From Verrucomicrobiales bacterium (lineage in GTDB: Bacteria; Verrucomicrobiota; Verrucomicrobiia; Limisphaerales; UBA9464): a stretch of 64,000 nt of DNA. The notes under the pieces are model-generated. The model worked only from the letters and a program-made list of their open reading frames with translations, was not told where the DNA came from and did not search any database. The position numbers were made by a program, and so were the translations under genes. Positions 41,618 to 62,034 of the stretch are shown piece by piece; within the stretch, counting starts at the first letter, position 1, and every line of letters begins with the position of its first letter. Location: NCBI GenBank assembly GCA_027490985.1, contig JAIXXC010000180.1:11174-75173 (forward strand). The letters run 5' to 3'.

Positions 41618-43945
41618 ATGATCCGGATCGCGTCGGGATGCTGGATCACAGCGGGATGGCTGGGCGTGGCGACGCTCTGCGCGCAGTTGCCCGTGCCCCG
41701 GCTCCATGCGGTGTTTCCGCCGGGGGGTGCCGCCGGATCCACCGTCGAAGTCACCGTGACCGGGTCGGACCTGGACGAGGCCACCGGCCTCGTGTTCTCC
41801 GATCCCCGGATCGTCGGCACCCCGGTGCCCGGATCTTCCGACCGGTTCCGGGTTCCGTTGCCGGCCGGGATGTCCGGAGAGCAACTCGACCTCCGGGTCC
41901 AGGGGCGCCATGGGGTCTCGAATCCGAGGGCGTTTTCGGTCGGTCCGGCCGCACGGGAACTCCAATGGACCCAACCCCCGCTCACGCCGGCCCAAGCCTT
42001 CGATCTCCCCCTCGAGGCCGTGGTCAATGGCCGCATGGGCGCCCAGGAAGTGCTCTGGTTTCGCGTTGAGGGCGAGGCGGGGCAGGCTCTGGGAGCGCAC
42101 ATCGAAGCCCGCGAACTGGATTCGCGATTGGTGCCCGACTGGGCGCTGATCGATGCCTCGGGCGCCGAACTCACCCGCGTGCGGCGTCGGGAGTGGTTCG
42201 AGTTCAAGCTGCCGGCCAAGGGTGTCTACCTCCTGAAATTGAACGACTCCCTGTACCGGGGCGGTGACACGCATGGGTTTCGGCTGGTGCTCACCGCGCG
42301 TCCACGGGTCGCGTTCGCCGTGCCGCCGGTGTTGCAGGCCGGCCGTTCCCAACGGGTGACTCTCTATGGTCGACGATTGCCGGGCGGTCATCCGTCGTCG
42401 GTGCCCGGCGCCGACGGAGAACCGCTCGAGCAGCGCGATCTGGAGATCACGGCTCCGACCGAGCCGGGTCCGGTGTCGGCGACGGTGGGGTTGCTCGGCC
42501 AACCCTCGGCATTCCCGTTGGCCCAGGAGGCCTGGGCGTGGCGTGGTTCGGAGGGGGTGTCCCCCCTCACCCCGGTGCTGTTCGCCCTGACCCCCTTTTC
42601 CGTGATCACCGGCGCCCCCACGGGGTTGGTTTCAGTGACGCCGCCGTGCGATTTCTCGAGCCTGTTCCCGGCCCGGGGTCGGTGGAGTGGGGTCACTTTC
42701 GAGGCGAAGCAAGGCCAGGTGTTCTGGGTGGAACTCGTTTCCGAGCGTTGGGGACATCCGGTGGATCCCATGGCGATCGTGCAACGGGCCAAGACACCCG
42801 AGGCCGCCGCAGAGGGGGCGGGCTGGGTCGATGTCTTGGAATTGGGGGATACCGAACAGAATCTGGGGGATCGCGAGTTTCCGACGGCCCACCGCGATGC
42901 CGCCGCCCGGTTGGAGATTCCCGAGACGGGGCGATACCGGATCGTCGTTCGCGACGGGTTCCGCCGGGGTGAAGCCGTGGCGCGTTATCCCTATCGCCTG
43001 AGCCTGCGTCCGGAGACTCCCGAGTTCCACTTGGCCGTCTTCCCCATGCCCCCGGCCCGTGTGGGCGAGGATCGCGCGCTTCCGGTGCTGCCATCGGTGG
43101 TCCGCCGGGATCAGACGGTGGCTTTTCGTGTGGTGGCCTTCCGACGGGATGGTTTCCAGGGCGAGATCGAGTTGTCGGCCATCGATTTGCCTCCGGGAGT
43201 GCGGGCGTCCGCCACCCGGATCCCATCGGGGCAGAACACCGGGGTGCTGTTGCTGACCGCTTCGGCCGAGGCCTCGGGCACGGGCTCCTGGCACGTGGTG
43301 GGCAAGGCGGCCGTGGGCTCGGTGGTCCAGACCCGCAAGGCCTCGCCCGCGTCGTTGGTGTGGCCCGTCGCCGATTACAACACCGAGAGCCCGGTGGTCC
43401 GGCGTTCCCGCAGTGGCGCGGTCGCCGTGGTGACCCAGGAGTCGGCCCCGGTGACGATCCGAGTCGGAACCGCGACCTCCTCTGCCGACGGAGCCACTTG
43501 GAAACTGCCATTGACCATCGAACGGCGCGGGGAATTCCAGGGCGCTTTCACGGTGAAGGCGGCCGGACAGTCCGCCCTGGACAAGGCCAAGGAGATCAGT
43601 GTCCCGGAAAAGGCCACCCATCTCGTGGCGGAGTTGTCATTGGGCGATGCGCGTTTGCCCTCGGGGACCCACACTCTGTGGTTGCAGGGCAGTGTCACCG
43701 GCAAATACCGACAGTCTCCCGAGGCGTTGGTGGCCGCCGAGGCCGAGTTGAAGGAGGCCGAGAAGGCGTTGTCGTCGGCCAAGCCCGAGGGCAAGGCCGC
43801 GGCGGAGACCCGCAAGAAGGAAGCCGAAGCACGTCGCAAATCGGCCGAAGAAAAGGCCAAACCCCGTGACCTGACCTTGGCCCTCTGGTCCGAGCCGTTC
43901 ACCGTGACAGTGGGTGCCACCGCCAAGCCGGAGGCCAAGCCGTGA
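41618..43945 (+). CDS. Secreted hypothetical multi-beta-sandwich protein (TIG/PPC-like modules) with K/E-rich C-terminal segment
   Basis: ATG 41618, 3 nt after the upstream stop. Signal peptide 'MIRIASGCWITAGWLGVATLCAQ'. Two PPC-like modules ('VLWFRVEGEAGQALGAHIEA...GVYLLKLND', 'VFWVELVSE...GRYRIVVRD'). Charged helix 'AEAELKEAEKALSSAKPEGKAAAETRKKEAEARRKSAEEKAK' (about 43715-43870). Confidence 0.8.
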   Translation: MIRIASGCWITAGWLGVATLCAQLPVPRLHAVFPPGGAAGSTVEVTVTGSDLDEATGLVFSDPRIVGTPVPGSSDRFRVPLPAGMSGEQLDLRVQGRHGVSNPRAFSVGPAARELQWTQPPLTPAQAFDLPLEAVVNGRMGAQEVLWFRVEGEAGQALGAHIEARELDSRLVPDWALIDASGAELTRVRRREWFEFKLPAKGVYLLKLNDSLYRGGDTHGFRLVLTARPRVAFAVPPVLQAGRSQRVTLYGRRLPGGHPSSVPGADGEPLEQRDLEITAPTEPGPVSATVGLLGQPSAFPLAQEAWAWRGSEGVSPLTPVLFALTPFSVITGAPTGLVSVTPPCDFSSLFPARGRWSGVTFEAKQGQVFWVELVSERWGHPVDPMAIVQRAKTPEAAAEGAGWVDVLELGDTEQNLGDREFPTAHRDAAARLEIPETGRYRIVVRDGFRRGEAVARYPYRLSLRPETPEFHLAVFPMPPARVGEDRALPVLPSVVRRDQTVAFRVVAFRRDGFQGEIELSAIDLPPGVRASATRIPSGQNTGVLLLTASAEASGTGSWHVVGKAAVGSVVQTRKASPASLVWPVADYNTESPVVRRSRSGAVAVVTQESAPVTIRVGTATSSADGATWKLPLTIERRGEFQGAFTVKAAGQSALDKAKEISVPEKATHLVAELSLGDARLPSGTHTLWLQGSVTGKYRQSPEALVAAEAELKEAEKALSSAKPEGKAAAETRKKEAEARRKSAEEKAKPRDLTLALWSEPFTVTVGATAKPEAKP

Positions 43946-47834: not shown

Positions 47835-49100
47835 ATGATCGCCCCGACTCCATCCGGTTCGCGCGGTGCCGCCTGGAAATGGTCGGTGTGCGGGATGTTG
47901 TTGCTGGCTTCGGCCATCAACTACATGGATCGGCAGACCCTTTCCGGACTGTCGGTGCGGATCACCCAGGAGTTCGGCATGACCAAGACCCAATATGGTC
48001 AGGTCGAGGCGGTTTTCGGCTACGCCTTCGCTGCGGGATCGGTGCTCTTCGGTTGGATGGCCGACCGCTTCCCCGTGCATCGGGTCTATGCCGCGGTGCT
48101 GGCGTTGTGGTCGCTGGCCGGGATGGCGACGGGATGGGCCCAGGATCATCAGGGATTGCTGCTGTTCCGTGGGCTGCTGGGGTTTTTCGAGGCCGGGCAT
48201 TGGCCGTGTGCCGTCCGCATCACCCGATCGCTGCTCGATGAACGTCAGCGCTCGATGGGCAACGGGCTGCTCCAGAGTGGAGCCACGTTCGGGGCCATCA
48301 TCACCCCGCTGGTGTTGCCCCTGTTGCTGGGCGTCGGAACGGCCGGTGGGGCAGGGGCTTGGCGGCCTCCGTTCTATCTGCTGGGGGGAGTGGGGCTGTT
48401 GTGGCTCATCCCCTGGTTCCTGATGGTCCGTTCGGGCGACCTGCGCTCGGGAGCCGAATCGGTGGCGGCTGCAGGCCCTGCGGCGCCCCCCTTCCTGAAA
48501 GTGCTCTTCAGCGGTCGGATGCTGGCGGTCATCCTGGTGGTCGCCTGCATCAACACGACGTGGCAAGTCCTGCGGGCCTGGCTGCCGATGTTCCTGCAAA
48601 AAGGACGAGGTTACACCGAGATCGAGGCCCTCCGATTCAACTCGGCCTTCTTCGCCGCGGCCGATGTGGGATGTCTGGCCGCCGGGGCCTTGGCGGTGGC
48701 CCTGGCTCGCCGGGGGCGCACTCCGTCAGGGGCCCGGTTCCAGGTGTTCCTCGGCTGCGCCTTGCTCTGCTGTGGCACGGTGGCGATCCCGTCGCTCGGT
48801 CGTGGTCCGGGGCTCATGATCGTGCTCTTGGCCATCGCGGCCGGAGCCCTGGGGGTGTTCCCGCTCTATCACACCTTCACCCAGGATCTCTCCGAACATC
48901 ATCAGGGCAAGATCACCGGCGCAGCCGGAGTCGCGGCCTGGATTCTGCCGGCCCAGGCCCAGTGGCTCTTCGGCCTCTCCGCCGATCGGTTGGGGACCAT
49001 GGATCCCGGTCTGGTGGTGGCCGGGCTCCTACCGCTGCTGGCCTTGCCCCCCCTGTGGTACCTTCATCGCATCAAGATCCGGATCCCCATCACCCCATGA
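47835..49100 (+). CDS. MFS transporter (anion:cation symporter/hexuronate-like)
   Basis: About 12 TM helices. 'ASAINYMDRQTLS', 'GWMADRF', 'FRGLLGFFEAGHWP'. Starts 6 nt after the creatininase stop. Confidence 0.88.
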   Translation: MIAPTPSGSRGAAWKWSVCGMLLLASAINYMDRQTLSGLSVRITQEFGMTKTQYGQVEAVFGYAFAAGSVLFGWMADRFPVHRVYAAVLALWSLAGMATGWAQDHQGLLLFRGLLGFFEAGHWPCAVRITRSLLDERQRSMGNGLLQSGATFGAIITPLVLPLLLGVGTAGGAGAWRPPFYLLGGVGLLWLIPWFLMVRSGDLRSGAESVAAAGPAAPPFLKVLFSGRMLAVILVVACINTTWQVLRAWLPMFLQKGRGYTEIEALRFNSAFFAAADVGCLAAGALAVALARRGRTPSGARFQVFLGCALLCCGTVAIPSLGRGPGLMIVLLAIAAGALGVFPLYHTFTQDLSEHHQGKITGAAGVAAWILPAQAQWLFGLSADRLGTMDPGLVVAGLLPLLALPPLWYLHRIKIRIPITP

Positions 49101-50374
49101 ATGCCTCCGTTTCCCGCCGACAGTTCCTCGCCACCGCAGGGGCCACGGCCGCAGTGACCGGGCTTGCGCCCTCGATCTGGGCTTCCAAGATCGCCGGACC
49201 GGCCCGCAAGAAAATCGCCCTGATCGCGACGGAAGTCCGCCTGCATTCGCACGCCCAGCATTTCATCGATCGGTTCCTTCTGGGCTACGTGTGGGAAGGC
49301 GGGTGGCGTCGGCCCGAGGTGGATCTGGTCTCATTGTATGTCGATCAGTTTCCCGAGAACGATCTGGCCCGGGCCACCGCGGCCCGTCATGGCGTTCCGA
49401 TTCATACAAGCATCGCCGAGGCATTGACCTTGGGCACGGGTCGTTTGGCGGTCGATGGGGTGGTCATCATCGGTGAGCACGGCCGCTATCCGAAAAACGA
49501 CAAGGGGCAAACGCTCTATCCTCGTCACCGGTTCTTCAAGGAGGTGGTGCGCGTGTTCGAGAGCTCGGGGCGGAGTGTGCCCGTGTTCAACGACAAGCAT
49601 CTCTCCACCGACTGGCGCGAATGCGTGGAGATGGTGGAGGACGCCCGGCGCCTCGGGTTTCCGTTCCAGGCGGGCTCGTCGCTCCCGGTCACCAAACGCA
49701 TGCCGCCCACGGAAATGCCGCTGGGCACCCCGCTCTCGGAGAGCCTGTGTGCCGCCTACGGAGGGCTCGACAGCTACGACATCCACGGTCTGGAGACCGC
49801 ACAGTGCATGTCGGAGCGGCGCAAGGGGGGCGAGGTGGGGATCCGTCGGGTCCACGGACTCCGGGGTGCCGCCTTCTGGGAAGAACTCGGTCGGCGAGAC
49901 TCGACTCGGCGGTTGCTGGAGGCGGCGTTGTGCCGCAGTCACAATCTGCCGGTGCGGGAGGGCTATCCCACGGCCCCGGTGAGCCTGGCCTGGGCCCGGG
50001 AGGTGTTTCCGGACGCCTGGGGCTACTTCATCGACCACCGCGACGGGTTCCGCACGACCCTGGCCATGCTGGGCATCCGTGACTTCAACTACGCGGGGCT
50101 GGATTCCAAGACAGGTCGGATCATCTCCTGCCAGATGTACCTGCCGATGCCGACGCACGGATCGTCGACGGCCGACTTCTTCAATCCGCAGATCCGTCAT
50201 ATCGAACGCATGGTCGTGGAGCGTCGCCAGCCTTATCCGTTGGAGCGCACCTTGTTGACCTCCGGAATGACCCTGGCCGGGGTGGAATCCCTCCATCGCG
50301 GACAACCCGTCGAGACACCGGAGATGGCCGTCCGGTACTCGGTGGGTGAGGCCTCATTGTTCTGGAGAGACTGA
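49097..50374 (+). CDS. TAT-signal hypothetical protein (possible Gfo/Idh/MocA-like fold, unassigned)
   Basis: ATG 49097 overlaps the MFS stop (ATGA). 'MNASVSRRQFLATAGATAAVTG' is a twin-arginine signal. 'KKIALIATEVRLHSHAQHFIDRF'. 425 aa. The track ORF start at 48359 is an out-of-context extension. Confidence 0.8.
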   Translation: MNASVSRRQFLATAGATAAVTGLAPSIWASKIAGPARKKIALIATEVRLHSHAQHFIDRFLLGYVWEGGWRRPEVDLVSLYVDQFPENDLARATAARHGVPIHTSIAEALTLGTGRLAVDGVVIIGEHGRYPKNDKGQTLYPRHRFFKEVVRVFESSGRSVPVFNDKHLSTDWRECVEMVEDARRLGFPFQAGSSLPVTKRMPPTEMPLGTPLSESLCAAYGGLDSYDIHGLETAQCMSERRKGGEVGIRRVHGLRGAAFWEELGRRDSTRRLLEAALCRSHNLPVREGYPTAPVSLAWAREVFPDAWGYFIDHRDGFRTTLAMLGIRDFNYAGLDSKTGRIISCQMYLPMPTHGSSTADFFNPQIRHIERMVVERRQPYPLERTLLTSGMTLAGVESLHRGQPVETPEMAVRYSVGEASLFWRD

Positions 50375-50538: not shown

Positions 50539-53500
50539 ATGAACCGCAATTCCCGAACCGGAGCGGCCTGGGGCCGCTGGGCGCTGATCCTGATCCTGAT
50601 CCTGTCTTTCCTGCCTGTCAGGGCGGGCAGTTTGTTGCGGGAGGTCTACAGCAACATCCCGGGCGTGACGTTGGACGCATTGACCAACAACCCGGCCTTC
50701 CCGACTTCCCCCTCGTCCACAAACCTGATCACCGATCTCTTCGAGGCACCCACCGACGTGGCCGACAATTATGGCCAGCGGGTGCGGGGTATCCTGACGG
50801 CGCCGTTGACCGGCAAATACACCTTCTGGATCGCGGGTGATGATTACGCCTCGCTGTACCTGAGCACCGACACGAGCCCCGAGAAGCGGCAGTGGATCGC
50901 CGGGGTTCCCGGATGGACCGGATCCCGGGAGTGGGGCAAGTACCCCGAGCAACAGAGCGCCCCGGTGGCGTTGGTCGCCGGTTCCCGTTACTACATCGAA
51001 GCCCTGCAGAAAGAGGAGGGGGGCGGCGACAATCTGGCCGTCCGGTGGGTGCGTCCGGATGGGGTGGACGAGGGTCCGATCCCGCTTGACGCCTTCGTGG
51101 CCTGGGGATTGAAGCCGGAGCCACCGCGGATCTCCCTTCAGCCGGTTCCCGTGACGGTCGACGAGCGGGGTTCGGCGACCTTCACCGTGGGGTACGACAA
51201 TCCGGGTGGGGCCGAGGTGACTTGGAAGCGCGATGGGATCCCCATCCCCCAGGCCTCGGGAGGCTCTTACACCCTCGAACCGGTGCGTTGGGCCGACAAC
51301 GGCGCGTTGTTTCAGGTGTTTCTCACCAATGCCCTGGGTTCCACCCAGTCGGTGGCCGTGGCGTTGACGGTGATCCCGGACACGGTGGCGCCGGAGGTGC
51401 GCCGGGTGTTCAACCTCGGTTTGACCAATGTGGTCGTCGAGTTCAGTGAGGCCGTCGGTGTTCCCTCGGGGGCTGTGGGCGAGGCCTTCAAGATCGATGG
51501 GGGGGCGACGGTGCGGTCGGTCGTCGCGGGAACGATTCCGACCCAGCTGGTGCTCGACGTGGGTGGGCTGGTCGAATCCACCCGGTATCGGATCACGATC
51601 AACGGGGTCCGCGACCAGTCGGCTCGCGCCAACGGGGTGAGTCCGAATACCGAGCGTGAGTTCTTCACCACCGACCTCGCCCCGGTCAATCTCGGGGGCA
51701 ATGACGCCCGCGCCACCACCGTTCAGTGGGTGGCCCGGGGCGGGTTCGACGTCTCGGCCCGAGGCGGCGACATCGGCGGCACCGTGGACTCGGCCGGGTT
51801 TGCGGCCCAGACCCTGACCGGCAATTTCGATCTTCGGGTCCGCGTCGATGGCCTCACCGTCACCGATCCCTATATGACGGCCGGACTGGTCGTCCGCTCG
51901 AGCACCGACGCCAATGCCACCTTCGCCGGGGCCTTTGCCGGTTCACCCACCATCGGGTGTTTCTTCAGGAGTCGAACCTCGACCGGGGCCAATGCCCCCA
52001 TGGTCGCACCCCGCGGCGGCTACCCGGCCAATTATCCGCAGACGTGGCTGCGTCTGCGCCGCGACGGCAACTCGATCGCGGCCTTCGGATCGTTCGATGG
52101 AACCCGCTGGACTTCGCTCGGTTCGGGCTCCATTGCGATGCCGAATGCCGTGCAGGTCGGCTTGACCGTGGGGGGGCGTGACACCAATGCCGTGGCGGTG
52201 GTTCGGTTCCGCGAGTACGGCACGGTGACCGGAGCCAGTGAGGTGGCCTATCAGCCCCGGCGTGAAGGCCTGGGGTTGTCCAGTCGCCGGACGCGGATCG
52301 TGTTCAGCGAAATCCAGTATCATCCGCAGACCCGTCCGGGAGAAGGGGCTCTGGAGTTCGTGGAGCTGTACAATGCCGGGGAGGTGTTCGAAGACCTTTC
52401 CCGTTGGAAGATCGAGGGCACGGTCCGCTTTCAATTCCCGGAAGGGTTCCGCCTGGGCGCGGGGCAGTTCGTGGTCGTGGCCAAGGATCCGGCCGCGGTG
52501 ATGGCCCGACAGGGGATCCGCGATGTCCTGGGGCCCTATTCCGGCAGCTTCAATGGTTCCGGAGGTCCGCTCGAACTGCGGGATGAACTCGGGGCGCAGA
52601 AATTGTCGATGGAGTTCACGACCCGCGATCCCTGGCCGGTCGCCGCCGACGGATCCGGTCATTCGCTGGTGCTCTCCAATCCGAGCTACGGCGAGGCCGA
52701 TCCCCGCGCGTGGTCTCCGAGCGCCGTCCGGGGCGGCAATCCCGGCCAGATGGATCCGGTGTCTCCGGAAGATCCGGCCGCGGGTGTGGTTCTCAACGAG
52801 ATCCTGGCCCACACCGACCTGCCGCAGCTCGACACGGTCGAACTCTACAACGGCGGCACCCAACCGGCCGATCTGTCCGGGTGCACGCTGACGGACGACG
52901 TGCGGACCAACCGCTTCCGCATGCCGCCGGGCACCGTGGTGCCGCCCGGTGGCTTTCTCGTGCTCGATGAGTCGACCCTCGGTTTTCGCCTCAGCGCGGC
53001 CGGGGAGACCGTCTGGCTCATCAGTTCGAATGGAGTGCGCGTCCTCGATGCCGTTCGTTTCGGGGGGCAGGAAAACGGAGTGGCCCTGGGTCGGACACCC
53101 GATGGGGCCGCCGGTTGGCGCCGTTTGGAATCGTTCACTCCGGGCAAGGCCAATGCCTCGCGCCGCCTCGAGGACGTGGTGCTCAACGAGCTCATGTACC
53201 ATCCGATTTCGGAGAACGACGACGAGGAGTTCGTCGAGTTGCACAATCGGTCGTCCCAACCGGTGGATCTGACGGGATGGCGTCTGCAGGACGGGGTGTC
53301 CTTCACCTTCCCGGCGGGAGCCTCGATCCCGGGTGGGGGCTATGTGGTCGTCGGTCGCAATGTCCAGCGTCTGCGGACCCAGCATGCGCAATTGACGGCG
53401 GCCAATTCCTTCGGCGATTGGTCCGGCTCGCTCCGGAATTCGGGCGAACGGTTGGCCTTGTCCAAGCCCGATCAGGTGCTTTCGACCAATGCGGTCGGCA

Positions 53501-56500
53501 CGGTCTCCGCCGAGACCCTCCACATCGTGGTCTCCGAGGTCTCCTATCGCGACGCCGGCCGATGGGGCCAGTGGTCGGGGGGTGGGGGTTCGTCCATGGA
53601 GTTGATCGACCCCCGCGCCGATCCGCTCAGGGCCTCCAGTTGGGCCGACTCGGATGAGACGGCCAAGGCGCAGTGGCAGCAGTTCACGCTGACCGACACG
53701 CTCCGCTTCAGCACCCAGGCCGCCACCCGCCTTCAGTTGGGCATGCTGGGGGCCGGCGAATGCCTGCTCGATCAGGTGGAAGTCCTCAATGCCGCCGGCA
53801 CCGCGATCCTGACCAACGGAGGATTCGAAACGGGTTCGGGCACCTCGGCGACCGGTTGGTCGTTCTTGGGACATCACCGCCGCTCTCGCATCGAATCGTC
53901 TGGAGCCTTCGAGGGGAGTCGCGTCTTGCGCGTCATCGCGCCGGGTGATCTCGATGCCGGCCGCAACTGCATCCGGGCCCCGTTGTCGGGAAGCCTGAAC
54001 AACGGATCGCGGATGACCCTGAATGTCCGGGCCCGGTGGCAGGCCGGATGGCCCGAAGTGTTGTTCCGGACCCGCGGTGGTGGCTTTGAAATGACGGCCC
54101 GACTGCCGGTGCCCACCAATCTGGGGACGCCGGGTCTGCCCAACAGCCGCCGGGTCGCCAATGCCGGCCCGTCGATCGACCTGGTCCGTCACACCCCCGC
54201 CGTCCCCGCGGCGGGACAGCCGGTGGTGGTCACCGCGCGGGTATCCGATCCCGATGGTCTGAGCTCGGTGAGCCTGCGGTTCCGGACCGTCGAGACGGCC
54301 AGCTTCTCCTCGATCGCCATGCGCGACGACGGCACGGCGGGCGACGCGATCGCGGGTGACGGAATCTGGTCGGGAACCTTGGCGGCGCGCGGCTCCGGTG
54401 AGCTGGTCCAGTTCATCGTCGAGGCCTACGACAACGCCAGCTCGACGGCGTCGACGGTGTTCCCGAGCGGGTCGGTCGTCGCGGGTCTGGCTCCGGTGAG
54501 CGGGGCCAACATCCGGTGGGGGGATCCGGTCCCCGTGGGCAGTTTCAATCACGTCCACGCCTGGCTGACCTCGAACCAGAACAACCTGCTGAGCAACGGC
54601 CAGGACTCGCCCCTGGTGGGCGGACTCGACAACACCTTCCGCGATTGCACGCTCGTCCACGGAAACCTGCGCGTGATCTACAATGCCGGCATCCGCCGCA
54701 AGGGGAGTCCGTTCACCGGGCAGGCCGATTATGCGCTGACGGTGCCCGGCGATGACCTGCTGCTCGGGACCCGCGATCGGGTGTTCGGACTGACGGGCAA
54801 CGGGGGTGAAGAGGAGACCCGGATGCGCAACCAGATCGCCAACTGGGTCGCCCGCAAGATGGGGTTGCCCTACCTCAACACGGCCTACATGCGGTTCTAT
54901 CGCAATGGCTCCCCCTTCGGCAGCGTGGCCGAGGATCTGGAGCAACCGTCCAACGAGTATGCCGAATCCTGGTATCCGGACGGGGGATCGGGCGACTTGC
55001 GCAAGGTGGCTTTCGCCTTCGAGTTCGATGATTCGGGCGGGTTCGCGCCCACGGGCGCGGATCTGGGCGTCTACAAGAACCCCAACGGCCAATACAACCT
55101 CTCGAGGTACCGCTACAACTGGCAGGGGCGTCCCACCGGCACCACCGCCAATGACTTCACCCACTTCTTCGCGATGGTCACCGCGGCCAACGATCGCACC
55201 GCGAACTTCATCCCGAACCTGCTCAACATCGCCGACATCAACCAGTGGATGCGGACCTTCGCCCTCGATGGATGCCTGGGGAACTGGGACACCTGGGGCA
55301 CGGGCAACTCGCAGAACAAATTCATCTATTTCCAGCCGGGAGGCCGCTGGCGGATCCTGCCCTGGGACATGGACTGGGTGCTCGGGGTCGGTGATCCGAC
55401 CAATCGACGCCTCTTCGGCGGCAATGATCCGGCGGTCAATGTGATGTTCGATACCCCCCTCTTCCAGCGCATGGCTTGGAGGGCCTATCAGGACGCCGTG
55501 AGCGGTCCCCTCAGCACCAATCAGTTCCAACCGCAATTCACGGCCCGGAGTGCGGCGCTGGCGTTCAATGGCGTCACGGGAATCTCGTCTCCGTCGGTGA
55601 TCGCCTCGTACCTGAACGGTCGGCGCACCTACCTCAACAGCCAGATCCAGGCGTCCGACGCCAAGTCGTTCGCCATCACCAGCAACGGTGGCAACAATTT
55701 CACGTCGTCGACCCCCGTGGCTGTCATCGAAGGCACCGCCCCCTTTGCCACGGCGGCGATCGAGGTCAACGGAATCCCCATGCCCCTGGAGTGGACGACC
55801 CTTCAGAACTTCCGCATCCGGGTGCCACTGGTGGGGCTCACCAACGTGCTGAATCTGGTGGCCGTGCGGGCCGACGGCACCCCGGTGTCGGGAATGACCG
55901 ATTCGGTGACCGTCCGCTACACCGGGGTGGTCCAACAGGCCGCCGATTACGTGGGCATCCATGAGATCCATTACAACCCGCTGGAGCCGGGTGCCTCGTT
56001 CGTGGAGTTGTTCAACCGGTCTCTTTCGACGTCGTTCGACCTGTCCGGATGCCGTCTCAACGGGGTGGACTACACCTTCCCGGAGGGGGCGGTGATGCCC
56101 CCCTCGACCTATTGGGTGCTCGTGCGCGACCGGGCGGCATTCGTGATGGCCTTCGGGGCCGGTGTCCGGATCTTCGATGAATTCGCCGGATCTCTGGACA
56201 ACGGCGGTGAACGGCTTTCGTTGGTCCGGGGAACCGGCTCCAACGAGGTGGTGATCAGCGAGGTCCGCTACGACAACGCCCCCCCGTGGCCCTCCCAGGC
56301 CGAGGGGTTGGGGTCTTCGCTCCAGCGCATCGACGCTTCTCAAACCGCATGGCGGGTGGGCAACTGGATGGCCGCCGAGACCAACAGCGTCAACCGGGTG
56401 ACGCCCGGCAGGGCCAATGCGGGAGCCGGCGGTCTGGTCGCCTTTCCGTCCTTGTGGATCAACGAGGTGCTGCCATCGAACACGGCCGGCCCCAAAGACA

Positions 56501-59500
56501 ACGCCGGTGATCGGGACCCGTACCTCGAGATCTTCAATGCCGGCAGCAACGATCTGGATCTCGGGGGCTACTTCCTGACCGACACATGGACCAACCGGTT
56601 GGCCTGGTCGTTTCCGTTCGGGTCGGTGGTCCCCGCCGGAGGATTCCTCACCGTTTGGGCCGATGGGGAGCCCGGAGAGGCTGCCGCAGGCATTCCGCAC
56701 ACCTCCTTCCGCTTGTCGCCCACCAATGGGGTGGTGGCGCTGATCCGCGACGAAGGCGGAACCACCGGGACCACCGTGTTGGACTTCCTCTCGTGGCGGT
56801 CCCTTCCCCCGGATCGGGCCTTGGGATTGATTCCCGACGGCACGGCCCGCAATGCGCAGACGCTCTTCTATCCGACGCCGGGAGCGACCAATGACGCCTC
56901 GTTCCCCGATTTTCGGGTCACGATCAACGAGATCATGGCCCAGAACACGACGGCCGTGATGGATCCGTCGGATGGGCAATACGAGGATTGGTTCGAGTTG
57001 TACAACGGTGGCACCAACACGGTGGACCTGAGCGGGTTCTACCTGACCGATCGGCTGACCAATTCGGTGTCGGCGATGTTCCGCATTCCCGCGGGATATC
57101 CGATTCCGGCCGGGGGCTTCCTGCGCATCTGGGCCGACAATGAAACCGGCCAGAACAAACCCGGCTCCCCGGACCTGCATGTGAACTTCTCGCTGTCGCG
57201 GGAGGGGGAGCAGGTCGGGTTGTTCGATCCGCGCGGAGTCCTGGTCGATGGGATCTCGTTCGGCGCTCAAACCAACGACGTGTCCCTGGGGCGATTCCCG
57301 GATGGCGGGCCCGAACCGCTCTATTTCATGGCGGTCCCCACGCCGGGATCACCCAACGCGCTGGCGGGTGGTAATCGGCCGCCGGTCTTCGCGCCGGTGA
57401 TGCCCATGGTTGCTCCGGAGCAGGTGCTGATCGCGTTCACCGTGAGTGCGCTCGATCCGGACGCGGGACAGGTCGTTTCCTATTCCCTCGGAGCCGACGC
57501 CCCTCCGGGCACGGTGATCGATCCGAACACCGGGCGGTTCCAGTGGCTGCCGTCGGAAACCGACGGCCCCGGCGATTACAGTTTTCTGGTCCGAGCCTCC
57601 GACAACGGGTCGCCTGTCCGAACCAGCCTCCTGCGGGTTCAACTGACGGTCAGTGAGGTCAACCAGGCGCCGACCCTACCGGCCGAAGTGACTCTGGAGG
57701 CCAAAGAGGGGATCGAGTTCACGGCCCGTCTCGAGGCGTCCGATGCCGATCGACCCGCGCAGACGCTGACCTTCGAGTCCGAGGGAGTCCTGCCGCCCGG
57801 CCTGACGCTCTCGCCTCAGGGCCAGATTCTCTGGACTCCCGATGAGAGCCTCGGGGGAACCCTTCAGACCGTGGCCTATCGGGTTCGCGATACCGGAGTG
57901 CCCTCGCTCTCGGTTTCCGGAGTGCTCCGGATCCGGGTGTTGGAGATCAACAATGCGCCGGCCTTCGAGGCGCCTGGCGCCCAGAAGCTGATCGAGGGGA
58001 CGCCGTGGAATCTCAGCCTGAAAGCAACGGATCCGGAAGGGACTCCGGTCCGATTCCAGGTGGATGGACCAGCCCCGGAAGGGTTCGTTCTCAGTCCTCA
58101 GACCGGTGCCGCCAGTTGGACCCCGACCGAAGCCCAGGGGCCTGCCAGTGTGGTGGTGCTGGTCCGGGCCGTCGACGGTTCGGCCGAGGCGCTCTCGGTG
58201 GTGCGTGAACTCCTCTTGGAGGTCGCCGAGGCCAATCAACCGCCGACCTTGGCCCCGATCGCCCCGCAGACGGTCGAGGAGGGGCGAAGCCTGAGCATCA
58301 CGCTCGTGGCCGACGATCCGGACCTGCCGGCGCAGACCCTGCGGTTTTCGCTCGAGCCCGGAGCGCCCGCCGGGGCGGTTGTCGATCCGGTGAGCGGCCT
58401 GTTCCAGTGGACGCCCGACGAGGATGCGGGGGGCTCGATCCAAGCGGTCACGGTCCGTGTGACCGATGACGGGCCGGGAGCCTTGAGCGCGACGCGTCGC
58501 TTCGAGATCACCGTTCGGCCCCGCTTCACGGTGGTCTTCTCGGAGATCCTCCGGAAATCCACCCCGGCCGGCGGGGAGTTCATCGAACTCTTCAACCGCT
58601 CGGCCCGCACCGCCTGGGATTTGTCCGGACTGCGCCTGACGGGCAGCAACCTGAGTTTCACCTTCCCCGCCGGAACCACCGTGGCTCCGGGAGGGCGGGT
58701 GCTGGTGGTCGGCAGTCGGAGCGGGATGATCGCAGCCTTCGGTCTCTTCCCCGGTGTCGTCGGAGAATGGGCGGGCACCCTGGGGCCGGTGGCCGATTCG
58801 CTGCGCCTCCTGCGTCCGTCGGGCAACACGGCGCCGGAGGCCGTGCTGGATCGGGTGGACTACGACGGCATCGCCCCGTGGCCCTCCGGGACCGCGGGCC
58901 CCAATCGCTCGCTCCAACTCGTTGATGCCCGGCAGGATCGCAATCGTCCGAGCAACTGGGCCGAGGCCTCGGCCTTCCAGGGCAGTCGGACCGTCCTCGG
59001 GTTCACCGACTCGTGGAAGTACTTCCAGGACGGAGCCCCGGCCGGGGGTACCAACTGGGTCACCCCGGGCTTCAACGACACGGCCTGGCCCAGCGGCGGG
59101 GGGCTTCTGTACGTCGAGTCGGCCGCCCTGGCGACCAACAAGACCACCGCCCTCACCCTCGGACAACCGACCTACTACTTCCGCCGCAAGGTGACGATTC
59201 CGGCGTTGACCGCCGGAGTGACGGTTCGCTTCCGGGTGATGTTGGATGATGGCTATGTGCTCTGGATCAATGGCCGCCGCGCGCATTTCCTGGGCATGGA
59301 CGACGTCGTGGTGACCCACGACACCTTCGCCAACCGGACGGTCAGTGATGCGGCGATCGAGGGCCCCTTCACCTTGCCTTCGGAGTTCCTGGTCGCGGGC
59401 GAGAACACCTTCGCCGTCGAGGTGCATCAGGCCAATCTTGGGAGTTCCGATCTTGTGTTCGGATTCGAGATGACCTTGGAGGGCGGCGACGGGGCGACCC

Positions 59501-60231
59501 TCACTCCGGGGGCGGCCAACACCGTCTCGGCGGTTCTGCCGCCCTTCCCGACGTTGCGCATCAACGAGGCACTGGCTCGCAACGCCCTTGGGCTGAAGGA
59601 CGCCAGCGGCAAGGCCGAGCCGTGGATCGAGTTGGTCAACACCGGTGATGCCCCGGTGTCGTTCGATGGGCTGTTCCTCTCCGACTCGGTCACCGGAACC
59701 AATCGCTGGGCCTTGCCGCCCTCGGGGGTTGTGGCGCCGGGAGCTTTCCGTGTGGTCTTTGCCGACGGGGAGTCCCTGCAGACGACCCCCTCCGAATGGC
59801 ATGCCTCCTTCCGGTTGCCGACGGCGGCGGGTTCCCCGTTCCAGATCCTGCTGGGCCGGGAGGTGGGGGGCGTGTTCCAGGCGGTGGATGTGTTCCGGGG
59901 TTCTGTGGACGCGGCCGACGACCGTTCCTGGGCCCTCCAGACCGACGGGGATCCGTTGACGGCCGCCGCGGGCACACCGACCCCGGGTGCGGCCAATCGG
60001 GTTTCGCTGGCCCCGCGCCTCGAGGTCTTGGATTTCCTGGCCGACGGCACCCTCCGGTTGGTCCTGCGCGGCACGCCCGGGCGTCGCTATCGGTTGGAGC
60101 GGGGCGGCGTGTTGGGGGTGTGGAGCGCGATCCAGGAGGTGGGCGCCGGGGACGCGGCCACGGTGCTCCTCGATCCGGGTTCCGAAGGCAGCGCCAGCCG
60201 GTTCTACCGGGTGATCGACATCACCCCGTGA
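50539..60231 (+). CDS. Giant secreted multidomain protein (3230 aa): PA14 + Ig-like + 8 lamin-tail domains + CotH + 4 cadherin-like repeats
   Basis: ATG 50539 with signal peptide 'WALILILILSFLPVRAGS'. Approximate domain map: PA14 50632-51108; Ig-like 51124-51672; LamG/DUF1349-like 51706-52218; CBM-like 53656-54108; CotH 54166-55638 ('ILPWDMDWVLG', 'AYMRFYRNGSPFG'); cadherin-like 57373-58518; galactose-binding-like 58996-59478. LTDs are recognised by '(V/I)xx(N/S)E(I/L)...(F/W)(V/I/L)E(L/I)(Y/F/H/V)N' at about 52294, 52783, 53173, 55951, 56446, 56911, 58525 and 59548. The reading frame is uninterrupted over 9.7 kb. Confidence 0.9.
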   Translation: MNRNSRTGAAWGRWALILILILSFLPVRAGSLLREVYSNIPGVTLDALTNNPAFPTSPSSTNLITDLFEAPTDVADNYGQRVRGILTAPLTGKYTFWIAGDDYASLYLSTDTSPEKRQWIAGVPGWTGSREWGKYPEQQSAPVALVAGSRYYIEALQKEEGGGDNLAVRWVRPDGVDEGPIPLDAFVAWGLKPEPPRISLQPVPVTVDERGSATFTVGYDNPGGAEVTWKRDGIPIPQASGGSYTLEPVRWADNGALFQVFLTNALGSTQSVAVALTVIPDTVAPEVRRVFNLGLTNVVVEFSEAVGVPSGAVGEAFKIDGGATVRSVVAGTIPTQLVLDVGGLVESTRYRITINGVRDQSARANGVSPNTEREFFTTDLAPVNLGGNDARATTVQWVARGGFDVSARGGDIGGTVDSAGFAAQTLTGNFDLRVRVDGLTVTDPYMTAGLVVRSSTDANATFAGAFAGSPTIGCFFRSRTSTGANAPMVAPRGGYPANYPQTWLRLRRDGNSIAAFGSFDGTRWTSLGSGSIAMPNAVQVGLTVGGRDTNAVAVVRFREYGTVTGASEVAYQPRREGLGLSSRRTRIVFSEIQYHPQTRPGEGALEFVELYNAGEVFEDLSRWKIEGTVRFQFPEGFRLGAGQFVVVAKDPAAVMARQGIRDVLGPYSGSFNGSGGPLELRDELGAQKLSMEFTTRDPWPVAADGSGHSLVLSNPSYGEADPRAWSPSAVRGGNPGQMDPVSPEDPAAGVVLNEILAHTDLPQLDTVELYNGGTQPADLSGCTLTDDVRTNRFRMPPGTVVPPGGFLVLDESTLGFRLSAAGETVWLISSNGVRVLDAVRFGGQENGVALGRTPDGAAGWRRLESFTPGKANASRRLEDVVLNELMYHPISENDDEEFVELHNRSSQPVDLTGWRLQDGVSFTFPAGASIPGGGYVVVGRNVQRLRTQHAQLTAANSFGDWSGSLRNSGERLALSKPDQVLSTNAVGTVSAETLHIVVSEVSYRDAGRWGQWSGGGGSSMELIDPRADPLRASSWADSDETAKAQWQQFTLTDTLRFSTQAATRLQLGMLGAGECLLDQVEVLNAAGTAILTNGGFETGSGTSATGWSFLGHHRRSRIESSGAFEGSRVLRVIAPGDLDAGRNCIRAPLSGSLNNGSRMTLNVRARWQAGWPEVLFRTRGGGFEMTARLPVPTNLGTPGLPNSRRVANAGPSIDLVRHTPAVPAAGQPVVVTARVSDPDGLSSVSLRFRTVETASFSSIAMRDDGTAGDAIAGDGIWSGTLAARGSGELVQFIVEAYDNASSTASTVFPSGSVVAGLAPVSGANIRWGDPVPVGSFNHVHAWLTSNQNNLLSNGQDSPLVGGLDNTFRDCTLVHGNLRVIYNAGIRRKGSPFTGQADYALTVPGDDLLLGTRDRVFGLTGNGGEEETRMRNQIANWVARKMGLPYLNTAYMRFYRNGSPFGSVAEDLEQPSNEYAESWYPDGGSGDLRKVAFAFEFDDSGGFAPTGADLGVYKNPNGQYNLSRYRYNWQGRPTGTTANDFTHFFAMVTAANDRTANFIPNLLNIADINQWMRTFALDGCLGNWDTWGTGNSQNKFIYFQPGGRWRILPWDMDWVLGVGDPTNRRLFGGNDPAVNVMFDTPLFQRMAWRAYQDAVSGPLSTNQFQPQFTARSAALAFNGVTGISSPSVIASYLNGRRTYLNSQIQASDAKSFAITSNGGNNFTSSTPVAVIEGTAPFATAAIEVNGIPMPLEWTTLQNFRIRVPLVGLTNVLNLVAVRADGTPVSGMTDSVTVRYTGVVQQAADYVGIHEIHYNPLEPGASFVELFNRSLSTSFDLSGCRLNGVDYTFPEGAVMPPSTYWVLVRDRAAFVMAFGAGVRIFDEFAGSLDNGGERLSLVRGTGSNEVVISEVRYDNAPPWPSQAEGLGSSLQRIDASQTAWRVGNWMAAETNSVNRVTPGRANAGAGGLVAFPSLWINEVLPSNTAGPKDNAGDRDPYLEIFNAGSNDLDLGGYFLTDTWTNRLAWSFPFGSVVPAGGFLTVWADGEPGEAAAGIPHTSFRLSPTNGVVALIRDEGGTTGTTVLDFLSWRSLPPDRALGLIPDGTARNAQTLFYPTPGATNDASFPDFRVTINEIMAQNTTAVMDPSDGQYEDWFELYNGGTNTVDLSGFYLTDRLTNSVSAMFRIPAGYPIPAGGFLRIWADNETGQNKPGSPDLHVNFSLSREGEQVGLFDPRGVLVDGISFGAQTNDVSLGRFPDGGPEPLYFMAVPTPGSPNALAGGNRPPVFAPVMPMVAPEQVLIAFTVSALDPDAGQVVSYSLGADAPPGTVIDPNTGRFQWLPSETDGPGDYSFLVRASDNGSPVRTSLLRVQLTVSEVNQAPTLPAEVTLEAKEGIEFTARLEASDADRPAQTLTFESEGVLPPGLTLSPQGQILWTPDESLGGTLQTVAYRVRDTGVPSLSVSGVLRIRVLEINNAPAFEAPGAQKLIEGTPWNLSLKATDPEGTPVRFQVDGPAPEGFVLSPQTGAASWTPTEAQGPASVVVLVRAVDGSAEALSVVRELLLEVAEANQPPTLAPIAPQTVEEGRSLSITLVADDPDLPAQTLRFSLEPGAPAGAVVDPVSGLFQWTPDEDAGGSIQAVTVRVTDDGPGALSATRRFEITVRPRFTVVFSEILRKSTPAGGEFIELFNRSARTAWDLSGLRLTGSNLSFTFPAGTTVAPGGRVLVVGSRSGMIAAFGLFPGVVGEWAGTLGPVADSLRLLRPSGNTAPEAVLDRVDYDGIAPWPSGTAGPNRSLQLVDARQDRNRPSNWAEASAFQGSRTVLGFTDSWKYFQDGAPAGGTNWVTPGFNDTAWPSGGGLLYVESAALATNKTTALTLGQPTYYFRRKVTIPALTAGVTVRFRVMLDDGYVLWINGRRAHFLGMDDVVVTHDTFANRTVSDAAIEGPFTLPSEFLVAGENTFAVEVHQANLGSSDLVFGFEMTLEGGDGATLTPGAANTVSAVLPPFPTLRINEALARNALGLKDASGKAEPWIELVNTGDAPVSFDGLFLSDSVTGTNRWALPPSGVVAPGAFRVVFADGESLQTTPSEWHASFRLPTAAGSPFQILLGREVGGVFQAVDVFRGSVDAADDRSWALQTDGDPLTAAAGTPTPGAANRVSLAPRLEVLDFLADGTLRLVLRGTPGRRYRLERGGVLGVWSAIQEVGAGDAATVLLDPGSEGSASRFYRVIDITP
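57373..58518 (+). repeat. Four tandem ~96-aa cadherin-like/Ig domain repeats inside the giant CDS
   Basis: Repeat boundaries 'NRPPVF', 'NQAPTL', 'NNAPAF' and 'NQPPTL' at ORF residues 2319, 2415, 2511 and 2606 (spacing 96/96/95 aa). Each unit carries '...DPD/DAD...Q/TL.F/YSL...G..ID/LSP.TG.F.WTP...'. Confidence 0.7.
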
Positions 60232-60259
60232 CCGCGGGTCCACCGAACTCGGGCGGCTC

Positions 60260-60724
60260 ATGTCGGGCTTCACGGAATTGACGGGTTGGAGGCTCGCCGG
60301 ACTGGTTCTGGTGGGCATTCCACTGGTCTGGTGGATCTGGGAGTCGCGCTGGGATGCCCGGTTGTTCAACCCTCAACCCGGGTGTCGGTATGAGAACCGG
60401 AGCGCCCGGCAGGCGGCGGCGTTGCTGGTCGGATGCCCCGAACTTCAGGTCTTGGATGTCAGGACCGCTCGGGAAACGGCTCAGGGCACCTTGCCGGGGG
60501 CGCGTCGGATCACCTGGGGTGAACCCGGTTTTCGAGAACAGGTGGCCCGCATGGATCGCGATCGGCCCGTGCTGGTCTATTGCGCCGGTGGATACCGGAG
60601 CCGGAAGTCGGTCGAGGTGCTGCGTTCGTTGGGTTTCAAATCGGTGCATCATCTGCACCGGGGTATGCTGGCCTGGCGCCGGTCGGGGCAGGGAGTGGTG
60701 CCTCCCGCGGTCGACGCCGTGTGA
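60260..60724 (+). CDS. Membrane-anchored rhodanese-domain protein
   Basis: N-terminal TM helix 'LAGLVLVGIPLVWWIW'. Rhodanese core 'LQVLDVRTARE' and active-site loop 'VYCAGGYRS'. Starts 28 nt after the giant gene. Confidence 0.85.
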   Translation: MSGFTELTGWRLAGLVLVGIPLVWWIWESRWDARLFNPQPGCRYENRSARQAAALLVGCPELQVLDVRTARETAQGTLPGARRITWGEPGFREQVARMDRDRPVLVYCAGGYRSRKSVEVLRSLGFKSVHHLHRGMLAWRRSGQGVVPPAVDAV

Positions 60725-60750
60725 GCCCGGGGGCGACGACTGCGGGTGCG

Positions 60751-62034
60751 ATGGGGCATTTCCCCGACGACACCGTCGGCAAGCCGGCGCTAAGCTCGCT
60801 CATGCGTTTGTTCCAGTGCGTCCGCTGGGTGGCTGCGTTGGGCTGGCTTGTCGCCGCAGGATCCGTGTTCGGTGGTGGCGGCGGCGGGGTGCCGGCGCTG
60901 GTTTCCGAGGCGCTCTTTCCACCGGAGGCCCGCCACAACCACGCCTCGTGCATCGTGGAGGCGGCCGACGGGACGTTGTTCGTCGCCTGGTTCAACGGGT
61001 CGGGCGAGCGTCAGGCCGACGATGTGAAATTGCAGGCTTCGCGGCGCAGGTCGGGAGCGCGGGCTTGGGAACCTCGATTCACCCTCTGGGACACCCCCGG
61101 ATTCCCCGATTGCAACCCGTCGCTCCATGTCGATGGCCAGGGCCGATTGTGGCTCTTTCATGCGGTCGTTCTGGCCAATACCTGGGAGTCGACGCTGTTG
61201 CAGGCCCGCGTCAGTGGCCGTTGGCGGCTGCGGGGGGCGGTGCGTTGGGACGGCATGCAGTCGGTGTTGCTGGCTCCGGGTGAGGAGTTTCTCCAAATCC
61301 TGGAAGGCCACTTGCCCCGATTGCAGGCGGAAGCGGCCCGGCCGGACCTGAGTCTCAAAGAACGTCAGGAAGTCACCGAATTCATCGAGGGCATCCATCT
61401 GGGCGCCACCAACCGGTTGTACCGGCGTCTGGGCTGGATGCCCCGGGCCCATCTCACCACCGTGGGCGGGCGCTGGATGCTGCCGCTATACCACGATGGG
61501 TATTCGGTTTCGATGGTGGCCTTGTCGGACGATCAAGGGCGGACGTGGCGACCGTCGTCGCCCCTCGTGGGTCTGGGGAATGTGCAGCCCAGTCTGACGG
61601 TCCGGCGCGACGGCACCGTGGTGGCTTGGATGCGCGACAATGGTCCGCCGCCCCACCGGTTGTTGCGGGCCGAATCCTACGACCGGGGCGAAACTTGGAC
61701 ACCGGCCGTCGACTCCGGCATTCCCAATCCCGGTTCCGGAGCCGAAGTGCGGGTTCTCCGGTCCGGAGAATGGATCTTTATCGGAAACGATTGTGAATCC
61801 GGGCGTCACTCCTTGGCGGTCTGGATCAGCGAAGACGAGGGGGAAACTTGGCCGATCCGCCGACAACTGGCGGGCGCAGCCCCGGGTCAGGGGTCGTTCT
61901 CGTATCCTTCCCTCCTTGAATCACGGGACGGAGGCCTCCACGCCACTTGGAGCGAGGCGCTCGGGGGGCGCGAAACCATCCGCCATGCCCGTTTCAACCG
62001 CGCCTGGGTCCGCGCGTCGGTCCCGGCCCCCTGA
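60751..62034 (+). CDS. BNR/Asp-box beta-propeller protein (sialidase-like)
   Basis: Three Asp-boxes: 'SDDQGRTW', 'SYDRGETW', 'SEDEGETW'. A signal-like segment 'MRLFQCVRWVAALGWLVAAGSVFG' starts at ATG 60802, which is an alternative start to ATG 60751. Confidence 0.85.
   Translation: MGHFPDDTVGKPALSSLMRLFQCVRWVAALGWLVAAGSVFGGGGGGVPALVSEALFPPEARHNHASCIVEAADGTLFVAWFNGSGERQADDVKLQASRRRSGARAWEPRFTLWDTPGFPDCNPSLHVDGQGRLWLFHAVVLANTWESTLLQARVSGRWRLRGAVRWDGMQSVLLAPGEEFLQILEGHLPRLQAEAARPDLSLKERQEVTEFIEGIHLGATNRLYRRLGWMPRAHLTTVGGRWMLPLYHDGYSVSMVALSDDQGRTWRPSSPLVGLGNVQPSLTVRRDGTVVAWMRDNGPPPHRLLRAESYDRGETWTPAVDSGIPNPGSGAEVRVLRSGEWIFIGNDCESGRHSLAVWISEDEGETWPIRRQLAGAAPGQGSFSYPSLLESRDGGLHATWSEALGGRETIRHARFNRAWVRASVPAP

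Follow-up and report, generated by a model that had tools for sequence, protein, structure and literature searches.

What does a CotH kinase-like domain do in a very large protein that is predicted to leave the bacterial cytoplasm? This question is raised by a gene in a stretch of 64,000 nucleotides from a Verrucomicrobiales bacterium (assembly GCA_027490985.1, contig JAIXXC010000180.1, positions 11,174 to 75,173 of the forward strand), which we call the window and whose numbering is used throughout. The gene, at 50539-60231 on the + strand, is one unbroken open reading frame (ORF) that runs from an ATG at 50539 to a stop codon at 60229-60231, encodes 3230 amino acids (aa) and contains no other stop. 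Thus, the intact 3230-residue frame reported in an earlier, sequence-only reading of this DNA holds, and it has intact collinear orthologues. The product is predicted to be a Sec-exported protein of ~340 kDa that works outside the cytoplasm of a freshwater Verrucomicrobium. It has a scaffold of eight lamin-tail domains (LTDs), several immunoglobulin (Ig)-like spacers and four cadherin-like repeats, with CotH as the one enzyme-type module.

Among CotH kinases, only those of Bacillus spores have been characterised; CotH proteins are known as invasins in Mucorales, and their role in the cellulosome is still unclear. In the window, a CotH domain with intact catalytic aspartates is among the most conserved parts of a very large, predicted exported protein of freshwater Verrucomicrobiota. 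Should the domain be active, the questions are which molecule it phosphorylates outside the bacterial cell and which donor it uses. Should it be inactive, the family to which the protein belongs would plainly illustrate how a kinase fold can be reused as a surface module. In either case, the analysis provides a domain map and names residues for mutagenesis.

The CotH domain and its active-site residues

The protein was searched with Pfam models both in full and as twenty overlapping pieces, and NCBIfam models were run as well. The CotH model (PF08757) scored 43.0 bits on the whole protein and 49.3 bits on the isolated region, against a cut-off of 23.8. A single-sequence phmmer search of the CotH region against the PDB gave no relevant match, whereas a profile built from 23 CotH domains of the family matched Bacillus cereus CotH (5jd9/5jda) with an E-value of 3e-11. 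Comparison with an alignment of Bacillus-type CotH proteins by hhalign gave a probability of 98.8% over 337 columns. We also obtained an AlphaFold2 (AF2) model of the region (predicted local distance difference test score, pLDDT, 85.2; predicted template modelling score, pTM, 0.85), for which Foldseek placed 5jd9/5jda on top (E 1e-17, template modelling (TM) score 0.72-0.81), with HipA, PI3K and Fam20C far behind. The CotH assignment made in the sequence-only reading is therefore well founded, given that the Pfam score lies above the cut-off and that the profile, hhalign and Foldseek comparisons all lead to Bacillus CotH.

Bacillus subtilis CotH is inactivated by the substitution D228Q and by D251A (PMC7821199). 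Sequences of the Bacillus type have a spacing of 23 residues between the Asp of 'QNFDG' and the first Asp of 'PWDYD'; because this is also the distance from 228 to 251, these two residues correspond to D228 and D251. When the window protein was aligned with the Bacillus sequences, as had been recommended in the earlier reading, both were found to be retained, as D1584 and D1610 (Table 1). The probable catalytic-loop Asn, N1593, lies nine residues past D1584, whereas the Asn of Bacillus 'DGFVHN' lies five past its Asp. The hhalign alignment puts a 4-residue loop insertion between them, and the equivalence of N1593 and the Asn of Bacillus 'HN' depends on where this gap is placed. The other invariant charged residues among 111 CotH domains of the family are R1378, E1495, R1525 and R1644.

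Next, we compared the conservation of CotH with that of the rest of the gene. Orthologues were taken from a scan of one genome per species with the CotH region as query, and the ratio of non-synonymous to synonymous substitution rates (dN/dS) was calculated against the orthologues of 81% identity. CotH was the most conserved module, with 90-92% identity where the gene-wide value is 81% and 66-70% where it is 57-60%. Its dN/dS of 0.04-0.06 was the lowest in the gene (~0.09 for the whole gene, along its full length), although these ratios are rough because dS exceeds 1. The near-invariance of the catalytic Asp residues and of the probable catalytic-loop Asn, together with their location in the slowest-evolving module, is the pattern expected of an active site more than of a binding surface.

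Predicted export signal and conserved core of the family

The ATG start is backed by orthologues, as the frames of two of them (L004 and L006) open one codon ahead of the equivalent Met. All orthologues have the same N-terminal layout, in which a few charged residues lead into a hydrophobic stretch and '(V/A)R(A/G)' is followed by 'G(S/T)LLREV', which is strongly conserved; conservation sets in at the hydrophobic stretch and continues with '(V/A)R(A/G)-G-S/T-LLREV'. This reads as a Sec-type signal peptide with predicted cleavage after 'VRA'. Accordingly, where the earlier reading had claimed a signal peptide, we find a signal-like N-terminus, as judged by eye and from orthologue conservation. 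Because the N-terminus contains no Cys, the protein is not a lipoprotein.

To define the family, we used residues 1325-1725 as the query of an exhaustive search of 1.84 billion cluster representatives. This yielded 1133 relatives at E<=1e-3, of which 336 reached E<=1e-30; most are 1500-3800 residues long, and in most of them CotH lies well inside the protein. A word-index homologue search with the CotH region gave five matches. We then surveyed the modules of 155 proteins (150 representatives from the exhaustive search and the five word-index matches) and counted them in the 88 that have at least 1800 residues. LTDs flank CotH on both sides in all 88, most often six in total. A module resembling a carbohydrate-binding module (CBM) is present in 86, an Ig-like module before CotH in 87 and one after CotH in 85. 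Peripheral modules are more variable: PA14 occurs in 35 of the 88, a concanavalin A (ConA)-like module in 51, He_PIG in 36 and a galactose-binding-like module in 24. These counts indicate that the conserved unit is LTDs - CBM-like - Ig - CotH - Ig - LTDs and that the lectin-type and cadherin-like modules are exchangeable accessories. We predict that this core is common to at least 336 sequence clusters, the modules themselves having been counted in the 88 long members. The public names of the relatives that we looked up were 'hypothetical protein', 'lamin tail domain-containing', 'PA14 domain-containing' or ConA-like, and never CotH, which suggests that the kinase-like module has been overlooked in annotation. 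Elsewhere in the window, there was no LTD or CotH paralogue.

In the window protein, four modules are, by family or fold type, of kinds that usually bind carbohydrate: PA14, the ConA-like DUF1349 module, the CBM4_9-like module and a galactose-binding-like module of the type found at the N-terminus of glycoside hydrolase family 2 (GH2) enzymes.

The protein ends in a beta-sandwich of ~70 residues, which had been noticed in the sequence-only reading and which recurs, always at the C-terminus, across the family. A hidden Markov model (HMM) of this domain matches 71 of the 155 family proteins and 21 open frames in the fetched loci (the window's own counted), and every match ends 0-6 residues before the end of the protein. 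The family pattern, G.xYR[VL]E … W … RFYRV, is seen at the C-termini of loci L002-L029. Neither the remaining ORFs of the window nor the sequences flanking the gene at the 31 orthologue loci gave a match to the HMM. The last 76 residues and four homologous termini gave no NCBIfam match and are without Pfam or PDB assignment; a profile search of a set of 5.8 billion proteins returned only six short fragments, and the best PDB profile match, to a fibronectin type III (Fn3) consensus, was not significant (E 0.11). The earlier statement that the protein has no sorting tag stands in that no PEP-CTERM or other curated sorting model matches; it does not stand in full, as the terminal beta-sandwich may itself be an anchor. 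A domain that serves in sorting or anchoring would be expected at just such a strictly terminal position, and the absence of this one from other proteins, in what is a limited sample, favours a family-specific role over a general secretion tag. We suggest that the domain may be a family-specific anchoring or sorting module.

Orthologues and integrity of the gene

The scan found the gene at 31 loci, nearly all of them in metagenome-assembled genomes (MAGs) of freshwater Verrucomicrobiota. The frame is complete and collinear at 14 of the 31, in independent assemblies. Four of the complete orthologues are 81% identical to the window protein over all 3230 residues and almost free of indels, one is 75% identical and nine are 57-60% identical; of the nine, one lies on a complete Limisphaerales chromosome of 7.9 Mb (OZ260084.1) and another on a long-read contig assembled with Canu.

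Giant genes that are rich in repeats are a recognised hazard of metagenome assembly, and a frame of this length could in principle be the product of repeat collapse, a chimera or a decaying pseudogene. We consider an artefact of this kind extremely improbable. The gene contains no tandem repeats and no dispersed DNA repeats longer than 39 nt, and its eight LTDs are 19-43% identical to one another, so that there is nothing for an assembler to collapse. In addition, the 14 complete collinear frames come from independent MAGs, the complete chromosome and the Canu contig among them, and dN/dS is ~0.09 over the whole length. The assembly collapse of repeats that had been named earlier as a possible objection is therefore not borne out by the DNA, by the divergence of the LTDs or by the orthologues. 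In one MAG (D1_MAG_00042), the orthologue is split between two contigs (L028 and L030) that overlap in CotH (query residues 1-313 and 277-401). Here, the assembly has broken the giant gene up, which is the reverse of a collapse.

Orthologues also differ from one another in several respects. Between L002 and L006, which are close to each other in most of their length, dS is ~1.3 in the equivalent of 57391-59013, which holds the He_PIG repeats and LTD 7, and 0.58 in the adjoining galactose-binding-like module, compared with 0.16-0.37 in most other parts of the gene. This suggests a recombination mosaic in the cadherin-like/LTD 7 part of the gene. Extra He_PIG-like repeats are present just before the C-terminal domain in six orthologues of 58-60% identity (L016, L018, L020, L021, L022 and L024), and ~400 additional residues follow PA14 in L020-L023 and L025; accessory modules have thus been gained and lost even among orthologues. 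As for the source records, five lake MAGs (L001, L005, L006, L012 and L025) are titled 'Akkermansia muciniphila' or 'Akkermansia sp.', with 65-92% identity in the CotH region, and three contigs (L013, L015 and L018; 66-86%) are binned as Chromulinivoraceae, Acidimicrobiia and Cyanophyceae. These carriers labelled as Akkermansia or as other phyla look mislabelled or mis-binned.

Proposed function and alternatives

We tentatively propose that the protein is an extracellular glycan-docking scaffold that carries a CotH phosphotransferase, a function to which we give a little under an even chance of being correct. We favour it because the protein has a signal-like N-terminus and lectin-type modules, because the catalytic Asp residues are kept and CotH is the most constrained module, because the CBM-like module precedes CotH in 86 of the 88 long members, and because there are precedents for extracellular, carbohydrate-targeted CotH proteins, such as the LTD-LTD-Fn3-CotH protein of the Clostridium thermocellum cellulosome. 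In such a scheme, the lectin-type modules would dock the protein on a glycan-rich surface, which might be the cell's own envelope or matrix or the surface of an alga or particle, and attachment to the cell may be provided by the conserved C-terminal domain. CotH would then use a nucleotide to phosphorylate a sugar or a Ser/Thr-rich protein of that matrix. By analogy, this would parallel the patterning of the spore coat by Bacillus CotH and the role proposed for cellulosome CotH proteins.

Several points weigh against this proposal. The lysines of the Bacillus N-lobe motif 'KKSY', presumed to bind the nucleotide, align to 'QADY' in the window protein (aa 1395-1398, window 54694-54705), in a column that is mostly Cys, Gly or Ala in the family, and with these lysines lost, nucleotide binding may be altered or lost. 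R1378 (window 54670-54672), one strand before 'QADY', and S1390, the Ser of 'GSP', are invariant in the subfamily, and it is conceivable that the basic residue has moved, as in WNK kinases. ATP is scarce outside the bacterial cell, and no phosphate donor is evident there. No substrate gene of the CotB/CotG kind is conserved beside the giant gene across clades. The carbohydrate-binding labels are given by family or fold type only, two of them at or below curated cut-offs, and a protein of 340 kDa would have to cross the outer membrane.

The absence of the canonical lysines and the scarcity of extracellular ATP would both be in keeping with a purely adhesive or structural surface protein, with CotH as a non-catalytic ligand or pseudokinase and the rest as a stalk of adhesin modules. 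An architecture of this sort, in which PA14 is joined to Ig-like and cadherin-like repeats and to LTDs, is typical of giant adhesins, and the PA14, He_PIG and galactose-binding-like modules are shuffled between members of the family. A recombination mosaic, as suggested for one segment here, is often seen in surface proteins, and Mucorales CotH proteins are described as invasins or virulence factors. However, in 111 members the catalytic-loop Asp, N1593 and the metal-binding Asp are near-invariant, CotH is the slowest-evolving module, and a pseudokinase would usually have lost one or more of these residues. We therefore regard a purely adhesive role as unlikely, although it is a real competitor of the glycan-docking phosphotransferase. 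As a further alternative, CotH could be an active enzyme with another chemistry or target, for example a glycan kinase, an enzyme that uses another donor or one that transfers nucleotides, to which the CBM-like module would present polysaccharide. Fam20B and POMK are glycan kinases within the kinase-like superfamily. Nearly all members have the CBM4_9-like module fused directly upstream of CotH, the N-lobe is unlike that of Bacillus CotH and yet keeps R1378 and the 'GSP' S1390 invariant, four residues are inserted in the catalytic loop, and the weaker kinase-fold matches in Foldseek include the Golgi casein kinase Fam20C (4kqa). On the other hand, the CBM assignment is borderline, and the CotH enzymes characterised so far are all protein Ser kinases (PMC7821199). 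In our judgement, this alternative is improbable.

The phosphotransferase proposal can be taken one step further. The family might represent, in bacteria, what the secretory-pathway kinases are in eukaryotes, with an active CotH-type phosphotransferase outside the cytoplasm of diderm members of the Planctomycetes-Verrucomicrobia-Chlamydiae (PVC) group. Its nucleotide site would have been rebuilt (no 'KKSY' lysines, an invariant R1378 and 'GSP', a longer catalytic loop), its CBM-like module would aim it at glycans or matrix proteins, and its C-terminal domain would hold it at the cell surface. We consider this a long shot. If this speculation is true, then phosphorylation of extracellular polysaccharide or matrix would be widespread in freshwater Verrucomicrobiota.

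Domain map and genomic context

The positions of all features are given in Table 1. All peptide motifs quoted in the sequence-only reading are present where expected, from aa 588 to aa 3221, and its assignments of PA14, eight LTDs and four cadherin-like repeats agree with the models.

Table 1. Features of the giant gene, its product and the neighbouring genes in the window.
Feature	Window position	Strand	Basis or remark
Whole gene	50539..60231	+	3230 codons plus stop; collinear orthologues 57-81% identity; dN/dS ~0.09
Signal-peptide-like N-terminus, aa 1-29: MNRNSRTGAAWGRWALILILILSFLPVRA, then GSLLREV	50539..50625	+	Inspection plus orthologue conservation
PA14 (PF07691), aa 69-181	50743..51081	+	38.8 bits vs cut-off 24
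Two Ig-like spacers: Ig_3-like aa 195-255, Big_5-like aa 296-378	51121..51672	+	Weak, 28.1 vs 30 and 18 vs 23.6 bits
ConA-like lectin/glucanase-type module, DUF1349 (PF07081), aa 415-544	51781..52170	+	33.6 bits alone, 27.2 in whole protein, cut-off 32.4
LTD 1-3 (PF00932), aa 582-745, 746-875, 876-1040	52282..53658	+	49.6, 46.6, 67.9 bits
CBM4_9-like beta-sandwich, aa 1040-1215, in conserved core	53656..54183	+	Borderline matches of homologous modules
Ig-like module with choice-of-anchor-X motif, aa 1215-1325	54181..54513	+	NCBIfam NF041940, 35.9 vs 25 bits, aa 1259-1288
CotH kinase-like domain, aa 1325-1700	54511..55638	+	Pfam PF08757 match at aa 1416-1669
D1584 ('NWD'), equivalent of catalytic-loop Asp D228	55288..55290	+	Aligned to Bacillus 'NFD'; Asp in 110/111 family members
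N1593, probable catalytic-loop Asn	55315..55317	+	Asn in 111/111; equivalence inferred
D1610, first Asp of 'PWDMD', equivalent of metal-binding Asp D251	55366..55368	+	Aligned to 'PWDYD'; Asp in 111/111
Post-CotH Ig-like module, aa 1700-1800	55636..55938	+	No Pfam match; 85/88 long family members
LTD 4-6, aa 1800-1965, 1966-2120, 2121-2285	55936..57393	+	PF00932 42.0, 44.5, 59.5 bits
Four He_PIG / cadherin-like Ig repeats, aa 2285-2660	57391..58518	+	He_PIG (PF05345) 109.4 bits, four stretches
LTD 7, aa 2660-2825	58516..59013	+	PF00932 43.3 bits
Galactose-binding-domain-like jelly roll, aa 2825-3000	59011..59538	+	No Pfam match; family profile and predicted structure
LTD 8, aa 3000-3160	59536..60018	+	PF00932 31.1 bits alone, below cut-off 34.3; one of eight whole-protein stretches
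C-terminal ~70-aa beta-sandwich, aa 3160-3230 (…GRRYRLE…W…RFYRVIDITP)	60016..60228	+	Family HMM
PSCyt1-WD40 protein, 999 aa, upstream	43942-46941	+	Planctomycete cytochrome c domain and WD40 repeats; PVC-typical architecture
Major facilitator superfamily (MFS) transporter, upstream	47835-49100	+	
Twin-arginine translocation (TAT)-signal protein, 421 aa, directly upstream	49109-50374	+	Twin-arginine signal, no further Pfam domain
BNR_2 protein, downstream	ORF 60580-62034	+	

The LTD model scored 337 bits on the whole protein, in eight separate stretches; when taken singly, seven copies scored 42.0-67.9 bits and the eighth fell below the cut-off. The cadherin-like repeats were best described by He_PIG. 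Big_9, Cadherin_5 (45.6 bits) and Cadherin_4 (39.9 bits) overlap the same stretch, and the classical cadherin model (PF00028) was not among the Pfam matches of this region. The Pfam run gave no match to RTX-type families or to dockerin in the window protein. For the ConA-like module, the JGI name of one relative is 'regulation of enolase protein 1 (concanavalin A-like superfamily)'. The CBM_4_9 model (PF02018, cut-off 25.9) gave no match in the window protein itself, and four homologous modules scored 26.6, 25.7, 19.4 and 17.0 bits. The family profile of aa 2825-3000 matched the GH78 rhamnosidase 3w5m (E 2e-4) and other glycosidases in the PDB. The AF2 model of this module (pLDDT 90.2) had 82 PDB matches in Foldseek at E<=1e-3, and the best 30 of these 82 were all GH2 glycosidases; the best matches were to GH2 N-terminal sugar-binding domains (E 4e-5, query-normalised TM score (TMq) ~0.45). 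On the strength of the model, this module is probably galactose-binding-like, of the GH2 N-terminal type, an assignment that refers to fold class alone and does not imply a ligand.

The G+C content of the window is 61-69%, and this explains the long ORFs that lie antisense within the gene, at 51943-57270 (-; 1775 aa) and 57676-60369 (-; 897 aa). We rejected both as genes, given that they have zero Pfam matches and that the + frame is mostly covered by such matches. ORFs of this size could, however, mislead gene callers. An Rfam scan of the window gave no match, and a scan for promoters and terminators gave no signal exceeding shuffled controls.

The neighbours of the giant gene are all on the + strand. 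They are kept, at 65-92% identity, in the clade of orthologues with at least 75% identity, whereas none is common to the 57-60% clade, which has neighbours of its own. Because no neighbour is shared across clades, we rejected a functional operon link. The earlier reading had pointed to rhodanese and BNR genes as possible conserved neighbours; the BNR gene is kept among close relatives only, and a rhodanese gene was not found among the ORFs tested. The TAT-signal protein is 86-91% conserved in the syntenic clade, which is above the giant protein itself.

Comparison with known systems

We searched the literature for CotH-LTD giants of PVC bacteria and for CotH in Verrucomicrobia or Planctomycetes and found no relevant paper. 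One related system is Bacillus CotH, a single domain of ~360 aa without a signal peptide, which acts in the mother cell on CotB and CotG (PMC7821199). The window CotH shares the Pfam family and fold of the B. cereus protein (PDB 5JD9/5JDA), and the Asp of 'NFD'/'NWD' and the 'WDxD' motif are kept. It differs in its sequence (~13% structure-based identity), in the 4-residue loop insertion and in the loss of the 'KKSY' lysines, and it is one module of a predicted exported protein of 3230 aa that has no CotB- or CotG-like neighbour.

Extracellular precedents are Cthe_0239 (LTD, LTD, Fn3, CotH) and CseP/Cthe_0044 (CotH) of the Clostridium (Acetivibrio) thermocellum cellulosome (PMC6083626). According to a recent review, the role of cellulosomal CotH proteins, structural or kinase, is unclear (PMC12484212). 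Like the window protein as we read it, they are secreted and belong to a carbohydrate-targeted assembly, and Cthe_0239 also joins LTDs with CotH. However, they are listed among the dockerin-bearing cellulosome components of a Gram-positive bacterium and have 62-117 kDa, whereas the window protein is three times larger, comes from a diderm PVC bacterium, has no dockerin match and differs both in its core (CBM-like - Ig - CotH - Ig) and in the domain at its C-terminus. The CotH invasins of Mucorales (CotH2/3/7) are described as also presenting a CotH-family domain on a cell surface that contacts another cell. By description, they are eukaryotic single-domain surface proteins without LTD or lectin-type modules.

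Fam20C and Fam20B are likewise kinase-like folds that act outside the cytosol; they work in the Golgi lumen, into which ATP is imported. CotH has been described as distantly related to Fam20C (PMC7821199). The structure 4kqa is among the weaker fold matches of the window CotH, but the structural match is weak (TMq 0.36) and there is no sequence-level membership.

Giant PA14/Ig adhesins, such as the ice-binding adhesin of Marinomonas primoryensis, resemble the window protein in being very long beta-sandwich chains with PA14, and the M. primoryensis PA14 structure 6xac is among the fold matches of the galactose-binding-like module. Adhesins of this kind are exported by type I secretion through a C-terminal signal and have near-identical tandem repeats. 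In contrast, the window protein has an N-terminal Sec-type signal (predicted), old and diverged repeats, no RTX match and an enzyme-type module. The Shewanella nuclease ExeM is another case of an LTD fused to an exported, envelope-associated enzyme; the role of its LTD is unknown, and membrane or envelope targeting has been suggested (PMC6085458). ExeM differs in having a single LTD, against eight in the window protein, and nuclease domains in place of a kinase-like one.

Taken together, secreted proteins that combine LTDs with CotH are already on record, and the architecture itself would not surprise a specialist. The window protein is much larger and comes from a large, conserved and uncharacterised family, and the features that appear specific to this subfamily are its fixed core, its terminal domain and the changes in the N-lobe and catalytic loop.

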